A stretch of DNA of 33,778 nt, from the IMG/VR virus record IMGVR_UViG_3300020045_002075, positions 1 through 33,778 of that record. The stretch is one strand, 5' to 3'. Position numbers and translations under genes: made by a program. Each line of letters starts with the position of its first letter. Position 1 is the first letter of the stretch. This DNA is from a virus. Its lineage: Duplodnaviria > Caudoviricetes. The notes beneath the pieces are model-generated. The model saw nothing but the letters and a program-made list of their open reading frames with translations, was not told where the DNA came from and made no database searches. Of the stretch, positions 2,176 to 32,733 are shown piece by piece.

Positions 2176-2787
2176 ATGAGGATTACATTACCAGAAGATA
2201 GCAAGGACATTACTTTGATGCAGTATCAAAAGTATTATGAACTTTTACAGCGTGAAGGGTTGGATGAAAAGCAACACAATCAAAGAAAGGTTCAAATATT
2301 TACAGGTATAAAACCTAATGAATACGACAAGATAAGTAAAGCAGATATTGACGATATGATTAAGCAAATAGATATTGCATTAAATCAATCAGCGGTATTT
2401 ACTCCAACGTTTAAAATAGATGATGTTGAGTTTGGTTTTATTCCTAACTTAGATAAGATAACAGTTTCAGAATACTTTGATTTAAGTAAGTATGGCGAGA
2501 GCGTAGATACATTGCACAATCTAATGGCAATATTATTTAGACCGATTAAAGATAAAGACAAGTTAGGTAACTATTCCATAACAGAATATTTAGGTACTGC
2601 TGAATGGGCAGATATAATGAAGCTAACACCAATGAATGCCGTTAATGGTGCGTTGTTTTTTTTTCTGAATTTGTCAACGGAATTAGTGAATTATACCCAG
2701 AGATATACGGAGGCGGAACAAGTGAAGGAAAGATTGCAAGCGACTACTTTGATAAATGGGGATGGTATGCAACCATCGATGAATTAG
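2176..2787 (+). CDS. Putative tail assembly chaperone-like protein, zero-frame product
   Basis: First gene of the tail block; contains a T9 slippery run at 2656-2664 with a long open -1 frame. Confidence 0.55.
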   Translation: MRITLPEDSKDITLMQYQKYYELLQREGLDEKQHNQRKVQIFTGIKPNEYDKISKADIDDMIKQIDIALNQSAVFTPTFKIDDVEFGFIPNLDKITVSEYFDLSKYGESVDTLHNLMAILFRPIKDKDKLGNYSITEYLGTAEWADIMKLTPMNAVNGALFFFLNLSTELVNYTQRYTEAEQVKERLQATTLINGDGMQPSMN

Positions 2788-2924
2788 CAAAAGGAAACAT
2801 TTTAAATTATAAGAAAGTTTTAAAGATAAACGTGTATGAAGCGCATATGTTTTTAGCACATAAGTTAGATAAACAGAAACTAAAGGCAGAAATAATGAAG
2901 CCTAAAAACGAAATACAATTATGA
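2664..2924 (+). CDS. -1 frame extension of the 2176 gene (fusion ~249 aa)
   Basis: Open -1 frame SEFVNGISELYPEIYGGG...DKWGWYATIDELAKGN...EIQL* with no early start codon; its TGA overlaps the next ATG. Confidence 0.65.
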   Translation, partial: SEFVNGISELYPEIYGGGTSEGKIASDYFDKWGWYATIDELAKGNILNYKKVLKINVYEAHMFLAHKLDKQKLKAEIMKPKNEIQL

Positions 2925-3091
2925 AAACACAAAACGATTTAATTTACAAAACAATTTTAATTTATATATTATTTAGTATGATTTTATGGAAATCAGTAGA
3001 ATCAAAAAACATATTAAATATTGTATTAGTGTCTATATGGATATTATTACATATCGTTATAGATTTAAAATATTTTAAAAATAAGCGATGA
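2921..3091 (+). CDS. Small membrane protein (56 aa, two hydrophobic segments), absent from the ORF track
   Basis: MKTQNDLIYKTILIYILFSMILWKSVESKNILNIVLVSIWILLHIVIDLKYFKNKR*; ATGA overlaps at both ends. Confidence 0.6.
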   Translation: MKTQNDLIYKTILIYILFSMILWKSVESKNILNIVLVSIWILLHIVIDLKYFKNKR

Positions 3092-3555
3092 ACCAATACT
3101 CAGAATTATTATACTATATTAAAAGTTTAGCCGATGCAGACGCTTTAGTTAATACCGTTACTCAAGGAGATTTTGAGGTTTTGGATTTAGATAAGGCGAA
3201 TATATTTCCTTTGGTTCATATCAGTATTACGGATAGCGGTTTTACAAATGGGCAAACTGTTAAGTTTAGTTTGCAAGTAGGATGCTTTGCGGTTAGAGAT
3301 ATAAATAAAGAAATAAGAACTAACAAGTTTTGGGAGCAGGACAATGAAGTAGATAACCACAATGAAACGCACGCAGTTTTAAATAGAATGTGGTTAAAAA
3401 TGTATACCGATTTCGAGTTAAATAATATAACAGCAAGTGAAAACCCAACGTTAGAAATTCAATCATTTGTCAGGGGGAATACTTTAGACGGATGGATATT
3501 GAGTTTTGAAGTGGAAATGCCTAACACAACAATATCGCTTTGTGAACCAGACTAA
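3088..3555 (+). CDS. Putative tail completion/terminator protein
   Basis: Size, position and FPLVHI...GWILSFEV pattern; inferred. Confidence 0.5.
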   Translation: MNQYSELLYYIKSLADADALVNTVTQGDFEVLDLDKANIFPLVHISITDSGFTNGQTVKFSLQVGCFAVRDINKEIRTNKFWEQDNEVDNHNETHAVLNRMWLKMYTDFELNNITASENPTLEIQSFVRGNTLDGWILSFEVEMPNTTISLCEPD

Positions 3556-4060
3556 ACAATATTTAGACGCTTTCGGGAAGTATATAGTTCAGCAATCTAA
3601 ATCCAACTTATCAAAGAAAAAGAAAAGAGATACAAGCGAATTATATAACTCAATCGGCTATGAGTTAGAAGTACATAAAAATAGTTTTAGCCTATCCTTT
3701 AAAATGGAGGACTACGGTAAGTTTGTTGACTTAGGTGTAAAAGGGGTTTCAAGTAGTTTTAAATCTCCTAACAGTCCGTTTAAATTTGGTACAGGCACAG
3801 GAGTAAGCGGAGGTTTAACACGCGGGATTGATGGATGGGTTAAACGCAAAAGAATACAGTTTCAAAAGAGGGGAAGTGGTAAGTTTATGAGTTATAAGCA
3901 AACTGCTTTTTTAATTAGAAATAGCATTTGGAATAAGGGAATAGAAACAACAAACTTTTTTCAAAGACCTTTTGAACTAGCATTTAAAAGATTGCCAGAT
4001 GATTTAATTGAAACATACGGATTAGAATTAGAAGATTTATTAAAACATAGCTTGAAATGA
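3506..4060 (+). CDS. Putative neck/tail-completion protein (HK97 gp10-like, basic); probable start GTG at 3542
   Basis: DTSELYNSI, MEDYGKFVDLGVKG, GIETTNFFQRPF; located in the tail block. Confidence 0.55.
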   Translation: MKWKCLTQQYRFVNQTKQYLDAFGKYIVQQSKSNLSKKKKRDTSELYNSIGYELEVHKNSFSLSFKMEDYGKFVDLGVKGVSSSFKSPNSPFKFGTGTGVSGGLTRGIDGWVKRKRIQFQKRGSGKFMSYKQTAFLIRNSIWNKGIETTNFFQRPFELAFKRLPDDLIETYGLELEDLLKHSLK

Positions 4061-4791
4061 TAAAAAGTTTATCGCCTTACATATTAGAAACTCCTTTTGT
4101 TAGTCCTTTGACTGATTTAGTTTGCACGTCATACACGTTGCAGGTATTTGTTTGGAATGGCTATAGAGAAACACCACCTTTAAACTATTCTTATCAAATA
4201 ACAAAAGACAATCCAACAGGTTCAATAGGAAACGACAAGGTAGATATTGCAAGGATAGTAGCTGATTATATAGATTTTCAACCGTTTGATACAATATTAA
4301 CTGAATTAATAGACGGTAACAATCAATATTGGGTTAAGACACAAGTGCTTTATACTACTTCTGATGTGGATGATTACGTGCCTCAAATAGAAACCACTAC
4401 TTTAATGGTAAAAGGTTATAACTACGGCATGAGTGGACAAAATGCACAACCGCCAACAAATAAGATATTTTTAAACGGAACAGAATTTAAAGTAAATAGA
4501 AACGGTTTTTTTGTGTTTCCTTTTTTGATTGAAGAAGCAACTCCCGTTGACACTCCCTTCGCTACAATTTCAAACGTAACAGCAGGATGTGTTACTTTTG
4601 CTTATAATATTCCTTATTCAGAAACAGCAGTTACAGTACAAAGAAGTACAGATAGTGGGGTAACATGGAGTAGTTCAACAGGAAGTCCTATTTCGCCTAG
4701 ATGTAGCTTTACAACAAATACAGGGGATTGGTTTAGGTTGAAGTCAATAGGAGTAGATGAGTATTATTCAAATGTATTTATAGTATTATGA
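4057..4791 (+). CDS. Virion structural (tail) protein
   Basis: Beta/Thr-rich; C-terminal VQRSTDSGVTW (Asp-box-like) segment; ATGA coupling. Confidence 0.55.
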   Translation: MIKSLSPYILETPFVSPLTDLVCTSYTLQVFVWNGYRETPPLNYSYQITKDNPTGSIGNDKVDIARIVADYIDFQPFDTILTELIDGNNQYWVKTQVLYTTSDVDDYVPQIETTTLMVKGYNYGMSGQNAQPPTNKIFLNGTEFKVNRNGFFVFPFLIEEATPVDTPFATISNVTAGCVTFAYNIPYSETAVTVQRSTDSGVTWSSSTGSPISPRCSFTTNTGDWFRLKSIGVDEYYSNVFIVL

Positions 4792-18216: not shown

Positions 18217-18546
18217 ATGAATGAGAAAAAATTAAAACCAACGACAATGGAAGATAGAGTTTTATCGTTAGAATATGGAGCAGAGAAAACCGAAAGGCAT
18301 TATGGAGAGTTGAAAGATAAAATTGAAGGCTTCTCTTCTGATATTTCAGATATTAAAAATGCCGTTGTCGGACACGCTATGAATGGTAATAGCGGAATGG
18401 TGCATGACTTAAAAAAGCATAAAGCTGAAATATACGAGTTGCAGGTTCAATGTATTAAATACGATTTGTATTTTAGACAATTATCTGTAGTTGTTTGTGC
18501 TTTGTTAGTTGGATTAATAACGGCTTTAATTAAAATATTTGTATGA
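18217..18546 (+). CDS. Coiled-coil protein with a C-terminal TM segment (lysis-associated)
   Basis: [21 protein letters not shown]; ATGA-coupled to the endolysin. Confidence 0.5.
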
Positions 18547-19010
18547 TAACAACGGCACAAGCAATTAGAGATTTTGGAAAACCAAATCAGCAAGGTAGTT
18601 ATTTGACAACAATAGATTTACCTTATCCTATGCGTTTGGCGTGGGATAAAAAAACAACAGTTAAAAAAATGCGATGCCATAAATTAGTAGCTGCTAATTT
18701 CACAGAAGTATTTAAAGATTTGTTGGAACATTACGGACTTGAAAAAATAAAAGAGTTAGGAATAGATTTATTTGGTGGATGTTTTAACTTTAGAGCGATG
18801 CGTGGCGGTTCAGATTATTCACGCCATAGTTGGGGAATTGCGATTGATTTAGACCCCGAAAGAAACCAACTTCACGAAACAAAAGCAACAGCAAGATTTG
18901 CACGCCCTGAATATAAACCAATGATTGATATATTTTACAAACATGGCTTTTTAAGTTTAGGAGTTGAAAAGAATTACGATTGGATGCACTTCGAGATTAA
19001 ACCTATTTAA
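18543..19010 (+). CDS. Endolysin, peptidase M15 family
   Basis: [21 protein letters not shown] (SxHxxGxAxD) and DWMHFE. Confidence 0.9.
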
Positions 19011-19011
19011 T

Positions 19012-19110
19012 ATGACCTTACAACAACTAAAACACAAAGGCAATAGAAGTTTATTAATATCTTTTATTCTTAGCTTAGGAGTGGTTATTTGGGTAGTTGA
19101 AACGGTATAA
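19012..19110 (+). CDS. Small single-TM peptide (32 aa), absent from the ORF track
   Basis: MTLQQLKHKGNRSLLISFILSLGVVIWVVETV* lies between the endolysin and the terminator. Confidence 0.45.
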   Translation: MTLQQLKHKGNRSLLISFILSLGVVIWVVETV

Positions 19111-19140
19111 AAAAACCACCCTGTTAAGAGTGGTTTTTTT
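19109..19140. terminator. Bidirectional intrinsic terminator
   Basis: AAAAAAACCAC-CCTGTTAAGA-GTGGTTTTTTT. Confidence 0.8.
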
Positions 19141-19144
19141 TAAT

Positions 19145-19397
19145 AAATTCTTTAAGTATCAGCCCAGCTACCTGTTATCAAGTTGGTCAACACATTCTTT
19201 TCAGTGCATCGGTTTTAATTCCTGCATAACTGTAATACCACCGTTTAATAATATTAACCATTCCGCAAATGGTTAGGTTTTATTTCGTTAAAACTACTTT
19301 TACCTTTTTTATATAGCGTCTAATACTATTAACTCTCGCCTTTACAGACCGCCTCTTGTTGCTTCCGCAATTTCGGTTTTGTTTCCTTAAAGAACTT
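19145..19397 (-). ncRNA. Candidate structured non-coding RNA (~253 nt), family unrecognised
   Basis: 5' AAGUUCUUUAAG pairs with 3' CUUAAAGAAUUU; internal hairpins with GGAA and GUAA tetraloops; TATATTTG promoter directly upstream and terminator directly downstream; no ORF in the track. Confidence 0.7.
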
Positions 19398-19400
19398 AGG

Positions 19401-19408
19401 CAAATATA
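19401..19408 (-). promoter_or_regulatory. Bacteroidota -7 promoter element (TATATTTG) for the ncRNA
   Basis: Matches TAnnTTTG, 3 nt before the paired 5' end; -33 element unclear. Confidence 0.65.
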
Positions 19409-19471: not shown

Positions 19472-19479
19472 TATCTTTG
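19472..19479 (+). promoter_or_regulatory. Bacteroidota -7 promoter element (TATCTTTG)
   Basis: TAnnTTTG 4 nt upstream of the ATG at 19484. Confidence 0.55.
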
Positions 19480-19483
19480 GATT

Positions 19484-19570
19484 ATGAAAAATAAAATATG
19501 GTTTCAAAGATTAGCTGATGGATTTGAAATAGGTTTCTTTGGCTGGGTATTAGAATTTAAAAATAAGTAA
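19484..19570 (+). CDS. Small peptide (28 aa), absent from the ORF track
   Basis: MKNKIWFQRLADGFEIGFFGWVLEFKNK*; ends 1 nt before the next ATG. Confidence 0.4.
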   Translation: MKNKIWFQRLADGFEIGFFGWVLEFKNK

Positions 19571-19571
19571 C

Positions 19572-19913
19572 ATGGATAAACTAATTTTAAAAGACTTTTT
19601 CTTAAAGTATTGGAAGTATGCAGTAATCCTAATATTGCTGATTGTTATTTACTTCCTTTTCAATCAAACCAAAACATTAGAAACTAAGGTTGCTACTGCT
19701 ATTGAAAAAGCAAAGGAACACGAAATTAAGGCACAATTCTATTTAGATATCTATCATTTACAAATGGAAAAAGATGTTGATTTACAAAACAAATACGATA
19801 GTTTACTACTCGAGAAAAACAAAATCAAAATTCAATACAATGAAAAAATTAAAATTATTAATGAGTTTACTGTTTCTGATATGCAGTCTTACTTCAACGA
19901 GCGCACAAAATAA
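19572..19913 (+). CDS. Putative inner-membrane spanin-like protein
   Basis: N-terminal TM (YAVILILLIVIYFLF) plus coiled coil; overlaps the next gene. Confidence 0.5.
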   Translation: MDKLILKDFFLKYWKYAVILILLIVIYFLFNQTKTLETKVATAIEKAKEHEIKAQFYLDIYHLQMEKDVDLQNKYDSLLLEKNKIKIQYNEKIKIINEFTVSDMQSYFNERTK

Positions 19914-20223
19914 GAAAGTTGTAATATTAGATAGTTTGCAATCTAAAAAAATAATTATACAACTTGAACAAGGCGATTTTGCACGTGCAGAATTAACGAT
20001 TTATAAAAGAATGGATACTTTGTCCCAAAAAAGAATTGAAGTGCTTAAAACGGCTAATTTTAGTTTATTGGATGCTTTTAACGAAAAGCAGTTAGAGGTA
20101 GATAAATATAAAGAAGCGGTTAAGGTGCAAGATAAAATAATTCAAAAAGAAAAGAATAAAAAAAACTTTTATAAAATAAGTACAATTGTTAGTATCGTTG
20201 CATTATTATTTTTTATAAATTAG
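19840..20223 (+). CDS. Putative spanin-like partner (signal peptide, coiled coil, C-terminal TM); track ORF starts at 19774
   Basis: ATG at 19840 gives the signal MKKLKLLMSLLFLICSLTSTSA-Q; C-terminal ISTIVSIVALLFFIN. Confidence 0.5.
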   Translation: MKKLKLLMSLLFLICSLTSTSAQNKKVVILDSLQSKKIIIQLEQGDFARAELTIYKRMDTLSQKRIEVLKTANFSLLDAFNEKQLEVDKYKEAVKVQDKIIQKEKNKKNFYKISTIVSIVALLFFIN

Positions 20224-25399: not shown

Positions 25400-26353
25400 T
25401 TAAAATAGTTTATTATTAATAATATTTCCTTTGCCGTTCCAAAATATGCTTTCAAACACCTTCTTTTTATTGTTAGTTGCTGATAGACTGCTACGGTGTT
25501 TAAACATTTCAATCTTTTCAAAAGGGGCATCGTATTCAGACAAATAAGCAGGATATTCTAAATTAGCAAACCACTGATAAAAAGCATCGTGATTAAATCC
25601 ACCCTCTTTATATTCACCCGTTCCTTTATATGGAATATCACAATAAATAATCGGATTACCATTAGGATTAATCAATACTTTTTCGTAACTTGTATTGCTA
25701 ATTTGTATGTTTTGTATGTTTTGTATGTTTTGTATGTTTTGTATGTTTTGTAGGTTTTGTAGACGTGTTAAGTGTTCTACTAATTCCAAATTTTGAACAC
25801 GATTATCTTCTAATAAAGTTATGTTTTTCTTTATATGATTACAGAATGCTAATCGTCTATTTTGCACACCATCAATCTCAATAAGATTAGGAATATCAAC
25901 GCCAATTTCACGCATACTATCTAAACATCCATTTACAATAAATTCGTGTGCTAAACGTTTTATTTTTTCAATTTCCGCTCCGTATAAATATGAATTTTGA
26001 CTATTACCAAAACTCCAGCAACTCATTACAAAACCACTAAACCAATCCGCATCATCATTGCTTTTATTAATTTGTTTATGAAACTCCTCTCGAGTAACCC
26101 ATTCGTAAAATTTAGGCTCGAGCGTTTTATTGTTTTTTAAATATTCTACAAGTGAAAAAATATGCTTATTTAGTTCGTTGTAGTGAACATTAAACCTATA
26201 ATCTCTAATTGCAGTAAAACTAATCGAACCACCGCCACCAAACAAATCATAAAAATCTGTTATACCGTTATGCCGTTGTGTTATTTTAGATAATATTTCA
26301 GAGGCTAATTTTCGCTTACTTCCCATATACGGAATGCCTAATTTTTCATTCAT
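25400..26353 (-). CDS. DNA N6-adenine methyltransferase, D12/Dam-like class
   Basis: PYMGSK, motif I DLFGGGGS, YNELN, motif IV YCDIPY (DPPY variant), LSEY. Confidence 0.85.
   Translation of the reverse strand: MNEKLGIPYMGSKRKLASEILSKITQRHNGITDFYDLFGGGGSISFTAIRDYRFNVHYNELNKHIFSLVEYLKNNKTLEPKFYEWVTREEFHKQINKSNDDADWFSGFVMSCWSFGNSQNSYLYGAEIEKIKRLAHEFIVNGCLDSMREIGVDIPNLIEIDGVQNRRLAFCNHIKKNITLLEDNRVQNLELVEHLTRLQNLQNIQNIQNIQNIQNIQISNTSYEKVLINPNGNPIIYCDIPYKGTGEYKEGGFNHDAFYQWFANLEYPAYLSEYDAPFEKIEMFKHRSSLSATNNKKKVFESIFWNGKGNIINNKLF
25702..25762. repeat. 9-bp tandem repeat: (TTTGTATGT)x5 plus variant copies, encoding LQN/IQN repeats
   Basis: Read directly; in frame within the adenine methyltransferase. 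Confidence 0.95.
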
Positions 26354-32198: not shown

Positions 32199-32351
32199 TC
32201 ACTTATTTTTAAATGGTTCTACAATTTTGTCAATGGCTTCTAAACATTTGCTTTTTACCTTTTCAGGGACTAAAGCATGAATAGTAACTGTTTCTATTCC
32301 TTTTTTGTACTTTGGCTTTGCGCCTGCGTTACGCTCGTTTTTCTTTTTCAT
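32199..32351 (-). CDS. Small basic, possibly DNA-binding protein (50 aa), absent from the ORF track
   Basis: MKKKNERNAGAKPKYKKGIETVTIHALVPEKVKSKCLEAIDKIVEPFKNK*; fills the intergenic gap; ribbon-helix-like pattern. Confidence 0.6.
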   Translation of the reverse strand: MKKKNERNAGAKPKYKKGIETVTIHALVPEKVKSKCLEAIDKIVEPFKNK

Positions 32352-32700: not shown

Positions 32701-32733
32701 CAAAGATAATTCAAATTAATTTAATTAAACAAA
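32701..32733 (-). promoter_or_regulatory. Bacteroidota promoter TTTG-N21-TATCTTTG (early arm)
   Basis: -33 and -7 consensus upstream of the ATG at 32674. Confidence 0.7.

Follow-up and report, generated by a model that had tools for sequence, protein, structure and literature searches.

What is the element on the minus strand between the endolysin gene and two membrane-anchored open reading frames of a tailed phage, and what could it do for its carrier? A sequence-only reading of this DNA had proposed an independently transcribed, structured noncoding RNA (ncRNA) of about 253 nt at this position. The window, by which we mean the whole 33,778-nt stretch that was analyzed, is a complete tailed phage genome (33.7 kb, with a terminal overlap of 121 nt) that encodes terminase, an endolysin, DNA methyltransferases, and a recombination exonuclease and contains no tRNA detectable by ARAGORN (0 genes) and neither a tyrosine integrase nor a reverse transcriptase. 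Judging from the promoter type and from which hosts are infected by phages with the same cassette genes (see below), we infer that the host belongs to the Flavobacteriales; the ten carrier viruses of the RNA, which are otherwise unrelated, likely infect Flavobacterium-type bacteria. Elsewhere in the window, a DNA methyltransferase ORF (25400-26353, minus strand) contains a short tandem repeat, LQN/IQN, about six times; the early control region has divergent -7 boxes at 32708 (minus) and 33021 (plus); and a 50-aa ORF (32199-32351, minus) is 64% identical to an ORF that lies head-to-head with the RNA in one homolog, L081. The neighbors of the element are as follows.

18543-19010, plus strand: endolysin (M15 peptidase), outside the RNA element
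19472-19479, plus strand: divergent -7 box TATCTTTG, preceding a 28-aa ORF (19484-19570) and the membrane-anchored ORFs (19572-20223)
19572-19913 and 19774-20223, plus strand: membrane-anchored ORFs that overlap in different frames, with a spanin-like position downstream of the endolysin

The element thus has the endolysin and a 32-codon ORF on one side and the 28-codon ORF with the two membrane-anchored ORFs (19484-20223) on the other. Both tiny flanking ORFs (19012-19110, 32 codons, and 19484-19570, 28 codons, each on the plus strand) are hydrophobic, match no family, and have no homolog in 80 loci around related endolysins; a family search with the two membrane-anchored ORFs also gave no match. 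The RNA element itself was found in none of the 80 endolysin loci, and in three close endolysin relatives (L002, L006, and L011) the next gene follows the endolysin directly. Because these relatives lack it, the element is, as judged from the comparison of loci, an insertion between the endolysin and the downstream genes of the window, and the divergent -7 box likely restarts late transcription after the insertion.

Homologs and predicted fold of the RNA

Homologs were collected by pattern scans, which yielded four IMG/VR contigs and eight metagenome loci (8 of 11 matching loci were family members), three of the latter being copies of the IMG/VR member L228. Successive IMG/VR scans gave 2 members among 2 matches, 1 of 16, 1 of 102, 4 of 25, 4 of 4, and 4 of 15, and since they always returned the same four contigs, more distant relatives, if any, lie beyond their reach. 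The collection from phage contigs that had been called for thus produced nine distinct homologs, which together with the window make ten sequences (alignment A3) in two clades, at 79-95% identity. Two homologs are partial: L209 ends with its contig, and L081 lacks the last 30 nt. In L081 (1694-1698) the RNA ends 30 nt early and is fused to a glycosyltransferase ORF that apparently has no start, through either a deletion or an assembly join.

Homology stops at the terminal stem of the RNA, and the flanks are mostly unrelated among homologs. When ATG-started ORFs were compared among the complete carriers (33.7, 43, and 93 kb), almost no proteins were common to them, and only a DNA methyltransferase occurred in all three; with no common partner protein beyond this generic enzyme, a host target fits. 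The RNA is present as a single copy per genome. Cultured phages and plasmids gave no real blastn match; a pattern scan of GTDB host chromosomes returned 29 loci, none of them in the family; and the RNA was found in 0 of 401 Flavobacteriales genomes by BLAST and in 0 of 150 by a covariance model of the family (model R1). Among 50 endolysin-bearing phage records, BLAST found only scraps of 17-46 nt, and model R1, when run on 50 related phage records, recovered only the known member G053, with all else at or below 16.1 bits.

The Rfam check that the earlier reading had asked for gave no match at the gathering cut-off when the window was scanned with the Rfam 15 covariance models. Relaxing the threshold to E ≤ 10 yielded 18 matches, none above 24.5 bits and most of them on the terminator; the families without a match include tRNA, tmRNA, RNase P, 6S, SRP, T-box, ribozymes, GOLLD, ROOL, CRISPR-DR, and tracrRNA. 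Hammerhead, T-box, group I intron, tmRNA tag, and K-turn were dropped by eye, as key bases vary or no model scores. Literature searches found no description of the RNA. Fremin et al. 2023, in its accessible text, presents candidate RNAs of 29-151 nt from IMG/VR (PMC10690425); its supplements contain no match to four motifs and the contig identifiers (files 3, 5, and 6) or to four contig identifiers (file 4), and a fragment of the RNA may be present in its alignment archives. The region had been called ORF-free. This holds insofar as no ORF of at least 20 aa is common to all homologs, but the plus strand of the window does contain a TTG-started frame of 59 codons (19097-19276). Only an 8-codon frame, MQELKPMH, is common to all members, and it has non-synonymous changes; longer frames differ between the clades. 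A small protein gene was rejected, there being no conserved ORF with synonymous bias.

The predicted RNA and its parts are listed below in 5' to 3' order, all on the minus strand.

19145-19397: predicted structured ncRNA of 253 nt, a new family (model R1), delimited by alignment A3, covariation, and the limits of homology
19401-19408: Bacteroidota sigma-A -7 box TATATTTG, seen in the sequence, with a predicted transcription start at ~19396-19397
19387-19396: boxA-like AGUUCUUUAA at +1, in the 5' strand of helix P1 (19397-19386), by comparison with host rRNA, tmRNA, and SAM-I loci
19359-19370: GNRA hairpin (GGAA, GAGA, or GAAA loop; 2-bp conserved core), from the alignment
19230-19347: long central arm, in which 7 of 21 pairs change on both sides
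19347-19342 with 19235-19230, and 19333-19322 with 19255-19243: helices P3 and P4 of the long central arm
19275-19305: P5 (AGGU/ACCU) around an AGUA...GAA motif with a variable hairpin cap, in 9 of 9 rows
19256-19274: distal hairpin P6, in which 4 of 7 pairs change on both sides
19192-19246: near-invariant 55-nt core with the third RAARCC repeat, a candidate binding surface
19207-19192: invariant GAAA-loop hairpin within this core, from the alignment
19167-19191: 3' bulged hairpin (GUUG/UAGC and CUUG/CAGG), with 2 of 4 outer pairs double-changed
19145-19156: 3' strand of P1 (anti-boxA), with two double-changed pairs (U-A to C-G and A-U to G-C)
19109-19140: intrinsic terminator hairpin, bidirectional, stronger on the RNA strand

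The 12-bp terminal stem that had been proposed (19397-19386 with 19156-19145, one G-U) is present in the sequence. The RNA alone folds at a z score of -1.2, and TAnnTTTG occurs 58 times in the window, so neither the fold nor the -7 box is evidence by itself, and it is the homologs that supply the evidence. In a curated structure of 54 pairs, 96.5% of 484 alignment cells pair and 15 pairs are changed on both sides; 0 of 500 shuffles reached the observed value, and slid controls paired at 32-48%. As the alignment had guided the curation of that structure, a second test used the centroid predicted from the window sequence only. This centroid contained 9 double changes against L204, where 1.15 were expected (0 of 5000 permutations), 4 against L203 (0.35 expected), and 4 against L081 (0.05 expected). 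The centroid of the opposite strand had about half as many double changes, as mirrored pairs predict. Many of the double changes fall on one branch, since the family is small and has two clades. In all 8 members compared, folding of the RNA strand is favored over that of its complement by 6-12 kcal, and the alignment cells contain 57 G-U on this strand compared with 4 A-C. Compensatory changes occur in the terminal stem, the long central arm, and three hairpins, which is the covariation that the first reading had asked for. From these sequence comparisons, we conclude that the element is very probably a genuine structured RNA under selection.

The predicted fold is a closed rod in which P1 joins both ends. 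A multiloop would hold the GNRA hairpin on its 5' side and two hairpins on its 3' side, and the long arm would pass through a conserved purine-rich internal loop to a junction with P6 and P5. In P5, AGGU/ACCU changes to GGGC/GCCC, and in the AGUA-N-loop-N'-GAA pattern, found in 9 of 9 rows, the closing pair changes from C-G to G-C; we take the AGUA...GAA motif to be a bulged-G-like motif.

Several of the hairpins proposed earlier give way to long-range helices. The hairpins UAACCAUU/AAUGGUUA (71 of 80 cells pair) and ACUUG/CAGGU (43 of 45) survive. The bases of the candidate UGCA/UGCA pairing never vary across the family. Of the UUGC/GCAA hairpin the 2-bp core and the GNRA loop stand but not the remainder (26 of 36 cells). 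AUAGU/GCUAU is contradicted by the alignment (22 of 45 cells), as is GUUUUA/UAAAAC (35 of 48), which is replaced by the covarying AGGU/ACCU helix. GUCU/AGGC is compatible with the homologs (35 of 36 cells), but its loop is no conserved GNRA, and its bases covary instead in a long-range helix, CUGUAA/UUACAG (54 of 54). For ACCG, whose candidate partners are CGGU and UGG, the bases concerned never vary, and constrained energies favor the RNAalifold form by 6-13 kcal. As to the two repeats noted before, the UUGCGGAA duplication is present but lineage-specific, and the AAAACCGA repeat is real but belongs to a family-wide, three-copy, A-rich RAARCC motif, of which the window has 3 copies compared with 0.36 expected (P = 0.0015). 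The conservation of the 55-nt core is partly biased, because several search patterns came from that stretch.

Predicted transcription signals at the ends of the RNA

The -7 box TATATTTG was found where it had been reported, at 19408-19401. In Flavobacterium psychrophilum, according to the portion of the source available, the -7 box lies at -12 to -5 (PMC9723704), and this spacing places the boxA-like sequence at +1 of the RNA. From its resemblance to host sequences, the 5' end AGUUCUUUAA is likely a Flavobacteriales boxA. The sequence AGTTCTTTGA occurs 79-136 nt upstream of 16S in 3 of 4 host rRNA loci (the fourth contig begins inside the motif); 2 of the 4 loci have it in the 16S-23S spacer. 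As far as the cited text goes, boxA occupies those rRNA positions in Escherichia coli and Bacillus subtilis, where the consensus sequences are similar, and boxA-dependent NusB-S10 antitermination is described for E. coli, with NusB binding also in B. subtilis (PMC13753749).

A -7 box followed after 2-5 nt by AGTTCTTTRA precedes tmRNA (4) or SAM-I (7) in 11 of 19 host loci, which were picked by eye for the Rfam scan from 30 fetched; the gap in these loci is 3-5 nt. Genome-wide, the promoter-boxA pattern is not enriched (39 matches compared with 35 in the reversed control, 201 genomes). The phage RNA has a 4-nt gap between the two elements, and this is the sole such site in the window. Within the family, boxA is present in 7 of the 9 members that have a 5' end and in variant form in 2. 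The register between -7 box and boxA is exact in 3 of 9 members and has one mismatch in 2 more; in L082 and L204 the -7 box lies 15 and 40 nt upstream, and L203 and L206, which lie downstream of an ORF and have no clear -7 box, contain the changed boxA AGTCCTTTAA together with a compensating change in its partner. At the host tmRNA and SAM-I loci there is no complementary strand later in the RNA, whereas the 3' end of the phage RNA pairs over boxA.

At the other end, the claim of a bidirectional terminator (~19140-19109) is borne out, with a minus-strand hairpin of -15.9 kcal (z = -4.8) and a plus-strand hairpin of -12.9 kcal (z = -3.3). Based on these results, the original picture of a stand-alone, structured phage ncRNA, driven by the host polymerase and outside Rfam, is supported as a prediction.

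Several observations extend beyond this RNA. The Flavobacteriales tmRNA and SAM-I transcripts (L330-L333, L316, L329, L335, L336, L338, L341, and L342) appear to begin with a boxA-like sequence; the analysis thus points to a likely Flavobacteriales boxA at +1 of tmRNA and SAM-riboswitch transcripts and suggests Nus-factor control beyond rRNA in this order. On the minus strand of two other host loci (L334:1514 and L343:27) a -7 box and boxA are followed by sequence without an Rfam match, which could possibly be unrecognised host ncRNAs. A different ORF-free element of 243 nt (L115:1489-1745, also in L164 and L197) has a -7 box, 4 nt, and a boxA, then a terminal stem of 18-19 bp that leads into tRNA-like sequence (z = -4.2). 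It matches neither Rfam nor model R1 and, as read from these features, is likely a second, unrelated boxA-closed phage ncRNA. The signature of a -7 box and boxA with a later anti-boxA is therefore a simple finder for phage ncRNAs, by which this second one has already been found.

The promoter-cargo-RHH slot

An ORF resembling ribbon-helix-helix (RHH) proteins begins 15-16 nt after P1 in five of the seven homologs with a 3' flank (three intact and two cut short); L208 retains a shortened one, and in the window and L209 no RHH gene lies behind the RNA. The RHH assignment is weak, consisting of a PHROG Arc-like match at E = 3.5e-4 (L082), a Pfam RHH_1 match below cut-off (L203), and otherwise Atlas leads only. 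Two RHH-like families lie downstream of the RNA, and they give no BLASTP alignment to each other. Both occur in cultured phages (seven records for one and three for the other, of which four were examined), and searches of 61 genomes of one host family found none.

In the four cultured phages, Polaribacter phage Danklef_1, Tenacibaculum phage JQ, and Flavobacterium phages FPSV-D15 and D35, the RNA slot is filled by a gene for a protein of 54-68 aa. Among six IMG/VR loci of the L232 RHH family, two have the RNA, two have the same promoter with a protein, one has no such promoter, and one is cut off. The promoter of L232, L208, and L205 recurs before 54-68-aa proteins in L354, L357, Danklef_1, and JQ, and FPSV-D15 has that of L082 in front of the gene for a 68-aa protein. 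The promoter blocks of RNA and protein versions are near-identical up to the start site (and ~15 nt past it in L082), and boxA is found only in the RNA versions of the slot. The blocks kept between the two versions, with short repeats seen by eye over the -33/-7 region, are a candidate operator.

The protein cargos are mutually unrelated, except those of Danklef_1 and JQ. Six of them, when searched against PHROGs and Pfam, matched no anti-CRISPR (Acr) or other named family and gave one match to a PHROG of unknown function, so that any anti-defence role of the slot is putative. The slot proteins at L348:1331-1495, L349:1331-1495, L350:1295-1501, L354:1295-1501, and L357:1293-1499 are small and unannotated, and such small slot proteins are candidate anti-defence proteins of Bacteroidota phages.

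In G053 and G052, attC-like DNA hairpins (TAAC...GTTR) flank the promoter-RNA-RHH unit on both sides. A crude detector also found them, weakly, on both sides in L357 and on one side in L350 and L354, and it found none in the window, G051, L352, L353, L348, or L349. Neither a tyrosine integrase (PF00589) nor a reverse transcriptase (PF00078) was found in any of five carriers, three of them complete. By these comparisons, the RNA looks like a new family with a new fold, borne as phage RNA cargo in an Aca-like cassette, and no Rfam family fits it.

Proposed role, alternatives, and comparison with known systems

Because the RNA trades places with small proteins under two promoter-regulator pairs, and also stands alone with a terminator, we favor a product that acts in trans. 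By analogy with acr-aca operons, the 253-nt RNA may act as a decoy that captures a host protein, the likeliest candidate being a defence protein; we put this reading slightly below an even chance. The earlier guess of a decoy or anti-defence RNA is supported indirectly by the cassette context, the promoter-RHH slot that the RNA shares with small proteins. Host sigma-A polymerase would initiate at ~19396, and the nascent boxA would load the host NusB-S10 antitermination complex, which would shield the untranslated RNA from Rho while it folds. The 3' strand would then close P1, hiding boxA and protecting both ends, and the terminator would end the transcript. Protein binding would fall to the invariant core together with the GNRA loops, the three A-rich RAARCC linkers, and the bulged-G-like motif. 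Where the RNA is part of a cassette, repression of the promoter by the RHH protein encoded downstream would confine expression to a burst when the phage enters a naive cell, much as acr-aca operons do, and the decoy would act early in infection by binding its host protein. The window copy would have left the cassette and now be a stand-alone insertion after the endolysin. In its accessible text, a study of acr-aca operons describes RHH repressors in anti-defence operons, where a repressor encoded downstream (of the RHH type in one case) limits the burst of anti-defence cargo (bioRxiv 10.64898/2026.07.27.740549).

That boxA-capped, self-closing RNAs form an interchangeable class of anti-defence cargo, which inhibits a non-CRISPR defence or soaks up its signal, is a broader idea that we consider rather unlikely. 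If the RNA is anti-defence cargo, one could use the promoter-cargo-RHH cassettes of Bacteroidota phages to locate counter-defences, both RNA and protein, through guilt by association, and the L115 element would show that the boxA-closed design recurs. The RNA is in any case a defined molecule for cloning and testing.

A cis-acting antiterminator of the nut or put type, in which boxA loads Nus factors and modifies RNA polymerase to read through downstream cassettes, is an unlikely alternative on the present comparisons. It would account for boxA at +1 and for most homologs heading a transcript into RHH and early genes with, by eye, no terminator hairpin after P1; the invariant CU-GAAA-AG hairpin also resembles boxB. 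However, the window copy meets a strong terminator at once and faces the antisense of late genes, and the same promoters and RHH genes run with protein cargo and without the RNA. A further argument against cis action is the covariation of the 3' strand, by which it closes over boxA; such closure would put an end to the complex.

We give as little credence to a trans-acting RNA outside defence. It could be a base-pairing sRNA or a scaffold in the manner of GOLLD/ROOL, or it could act as a decoy that titrates a housekeeping factor, for example RNA polymerase (as 6S RNA does), Rho, or NusB. The closed rod with its large central multiloop, the long invariant single-stranded stretches, and the boxA would suit such an RNA, but no 6S, SRP, RNase P, or tmRNA model scored at E ≤ 10. 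Since boxA is paired in the mature predicted fold and mutated together with its partner in L203 and L206, a NusB sponge is argued against. Comparison of the RNA with four rRNA loci and two tmRNA loci of hosts found only scattered words of 11-13 nt in common.

Improbable, too, is a ligand-binding RNA. It might control the RHH gene as a riboswitch or translational operator, or it might be a free aptamer that titrates a small molecule, for example an immune signal nucleotide. Host SAM-I riboswitches start with the identical promoter-boxA signature, P1 ends 15-16 nt upstream of the RHH start, the junctions are invariant and the loops purine-rich, and Aca proteins, in the cited portion of the work, can bind structured 5' UTR motifs (bioRxiv 10.64898/2026.07.27.740549). 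Against this reading, the window and L209 have no such gene behind the RNA, the RHH genes found there come from two unrelated families, and there is no covarying alternative terminator/antiterminator fold.

Selfish or neutral mobile DNA of the MITE type, with the inverted ends as transposon ends and no RNA function, would explain why homology ends sharply at a 12-bp inverted repeat between unrelated flanks, but this is very unlikely: internal helices covary with many G-U pairs on one strand only, the ends themselves covary, the promoter, boxA, and terminator stand in register with one another, the element is single-copy and shows no target duplication, and the cassette accounts for its mobility. 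A lysis-timing regulator, acting by position or as antisense to lysis genes, had been among the earlier guesses. The element does lie on the opposite strand between endolysin and spanin-like genes, and by eye one of nine homologs (L232) follows two small holin-like ORFs, but this is hardly credible, as the RNA overlaps no lysis gene, is absent from all 80 related endolysin loci, and in the other eight homologs lies among early or unknown genes.

The preferred reading, a trans-acting decoy, can be set beside several known systems. Like retron msr-msd RNA, the RNA is ~250 nt long and closed by a 12-bp terminal stem, but the five carriers lack a reverse transcriptase, its long arm has interruptions and many G-U pairs, and the nucleotide that follows the stem can be other than G. 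The promoter-RNA-RHH unit of G053 and G052 lies between TAAC...GTTR hairpins as integron cassettes lie between attC sites; unlike in integrons, no tyrosine integrase was found in the five carriers, and the window and L081 copies are without these hairpins.

Among boxA/Nus-type antitermination systems, lambda nut and HK022 put are the phage comparators; no N-like gene is linked to the RNA. In the available text on rrn boxA and Nus-factor antitermination (PMC13753749), as here, a boxA-like sequence heads an untranslated RNA; in the phage family, boxA occupies +1 and is sealed by pairing with a covarying anti-boxA strand at the 3' end, and the window copy ends at a terminator.

GOLLD- and ROOL-type RNAs are often phage-borne and are much longer than the 253-nt RNA, which has no Rfam match and is carried as cassette cargo. 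Such large ornate ncRNAs, as the accessible part of one report describes them, are structured RNAs of obscure role with tertiary motifs, and in this they are alike (PMC12286853).

Racr (PMC10651486) and rAcrIIA1 (bioRxiv 10.64898/2026.06.03.729762), in the portions of the reports available, are likewise stand-alone phage ncRNAs with a host promoter and proposed sequestration of a host protein; they mimic CRISPR repeats or a guide, and rAcrIIA1 is ~111 nt long. Our RNA, by contrast, is a 253-nt, multi-domain molecule with no likeness to the type II-C repeats, anti-repeat regions, and Rfam CRISPR families tested. The scores of 13 Flavobacteriales repeat strings, all of type II-C, were within the shuffled range, the best (P = 0.03) being caused by the boxA word inside one repeat; eight anti-repeat regions scored 19-26, with a best model match of 13.8 bits (E = 0.068). 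Since rAcrVIA1, in the part of the report available, mimics structure without sequence likeness, this RNA could conceivably act on a Cas protein by structural mimicry. As separate observations, the L372 array (~2260-4410) has a 57-nt type II-C repeat with a full boxA-like word in every copy, a 36-nt repeat in L381 has a near match to this word, and a boxA-like site lies 174 nt upstream of the L374 array.

A close parallel is to acr-aca operons, especially those with the RHH-type Aca14, which in the available text (bioRxiv 10.64898/2026.07.27.740549) are alike in being phage-borne and in combining a promoter whose repeats cover the polymerase site with a variable cargo of small size and a small RHH-like gene. 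Here, in contrast, a 253-nt RNA takes the cargo position, none of the protein cargos matches an Acr family, and autorepression and any homology to Aca14 are putative. Known phage RNA counter-defences copy CRISPR guides, and this RNA is larger and multi-domain; a 250-nt RNA that swaps with small proteins in a putatively autoregulated cassette suggests that larger folded RNAs can be cargo on equal terms with proteins.
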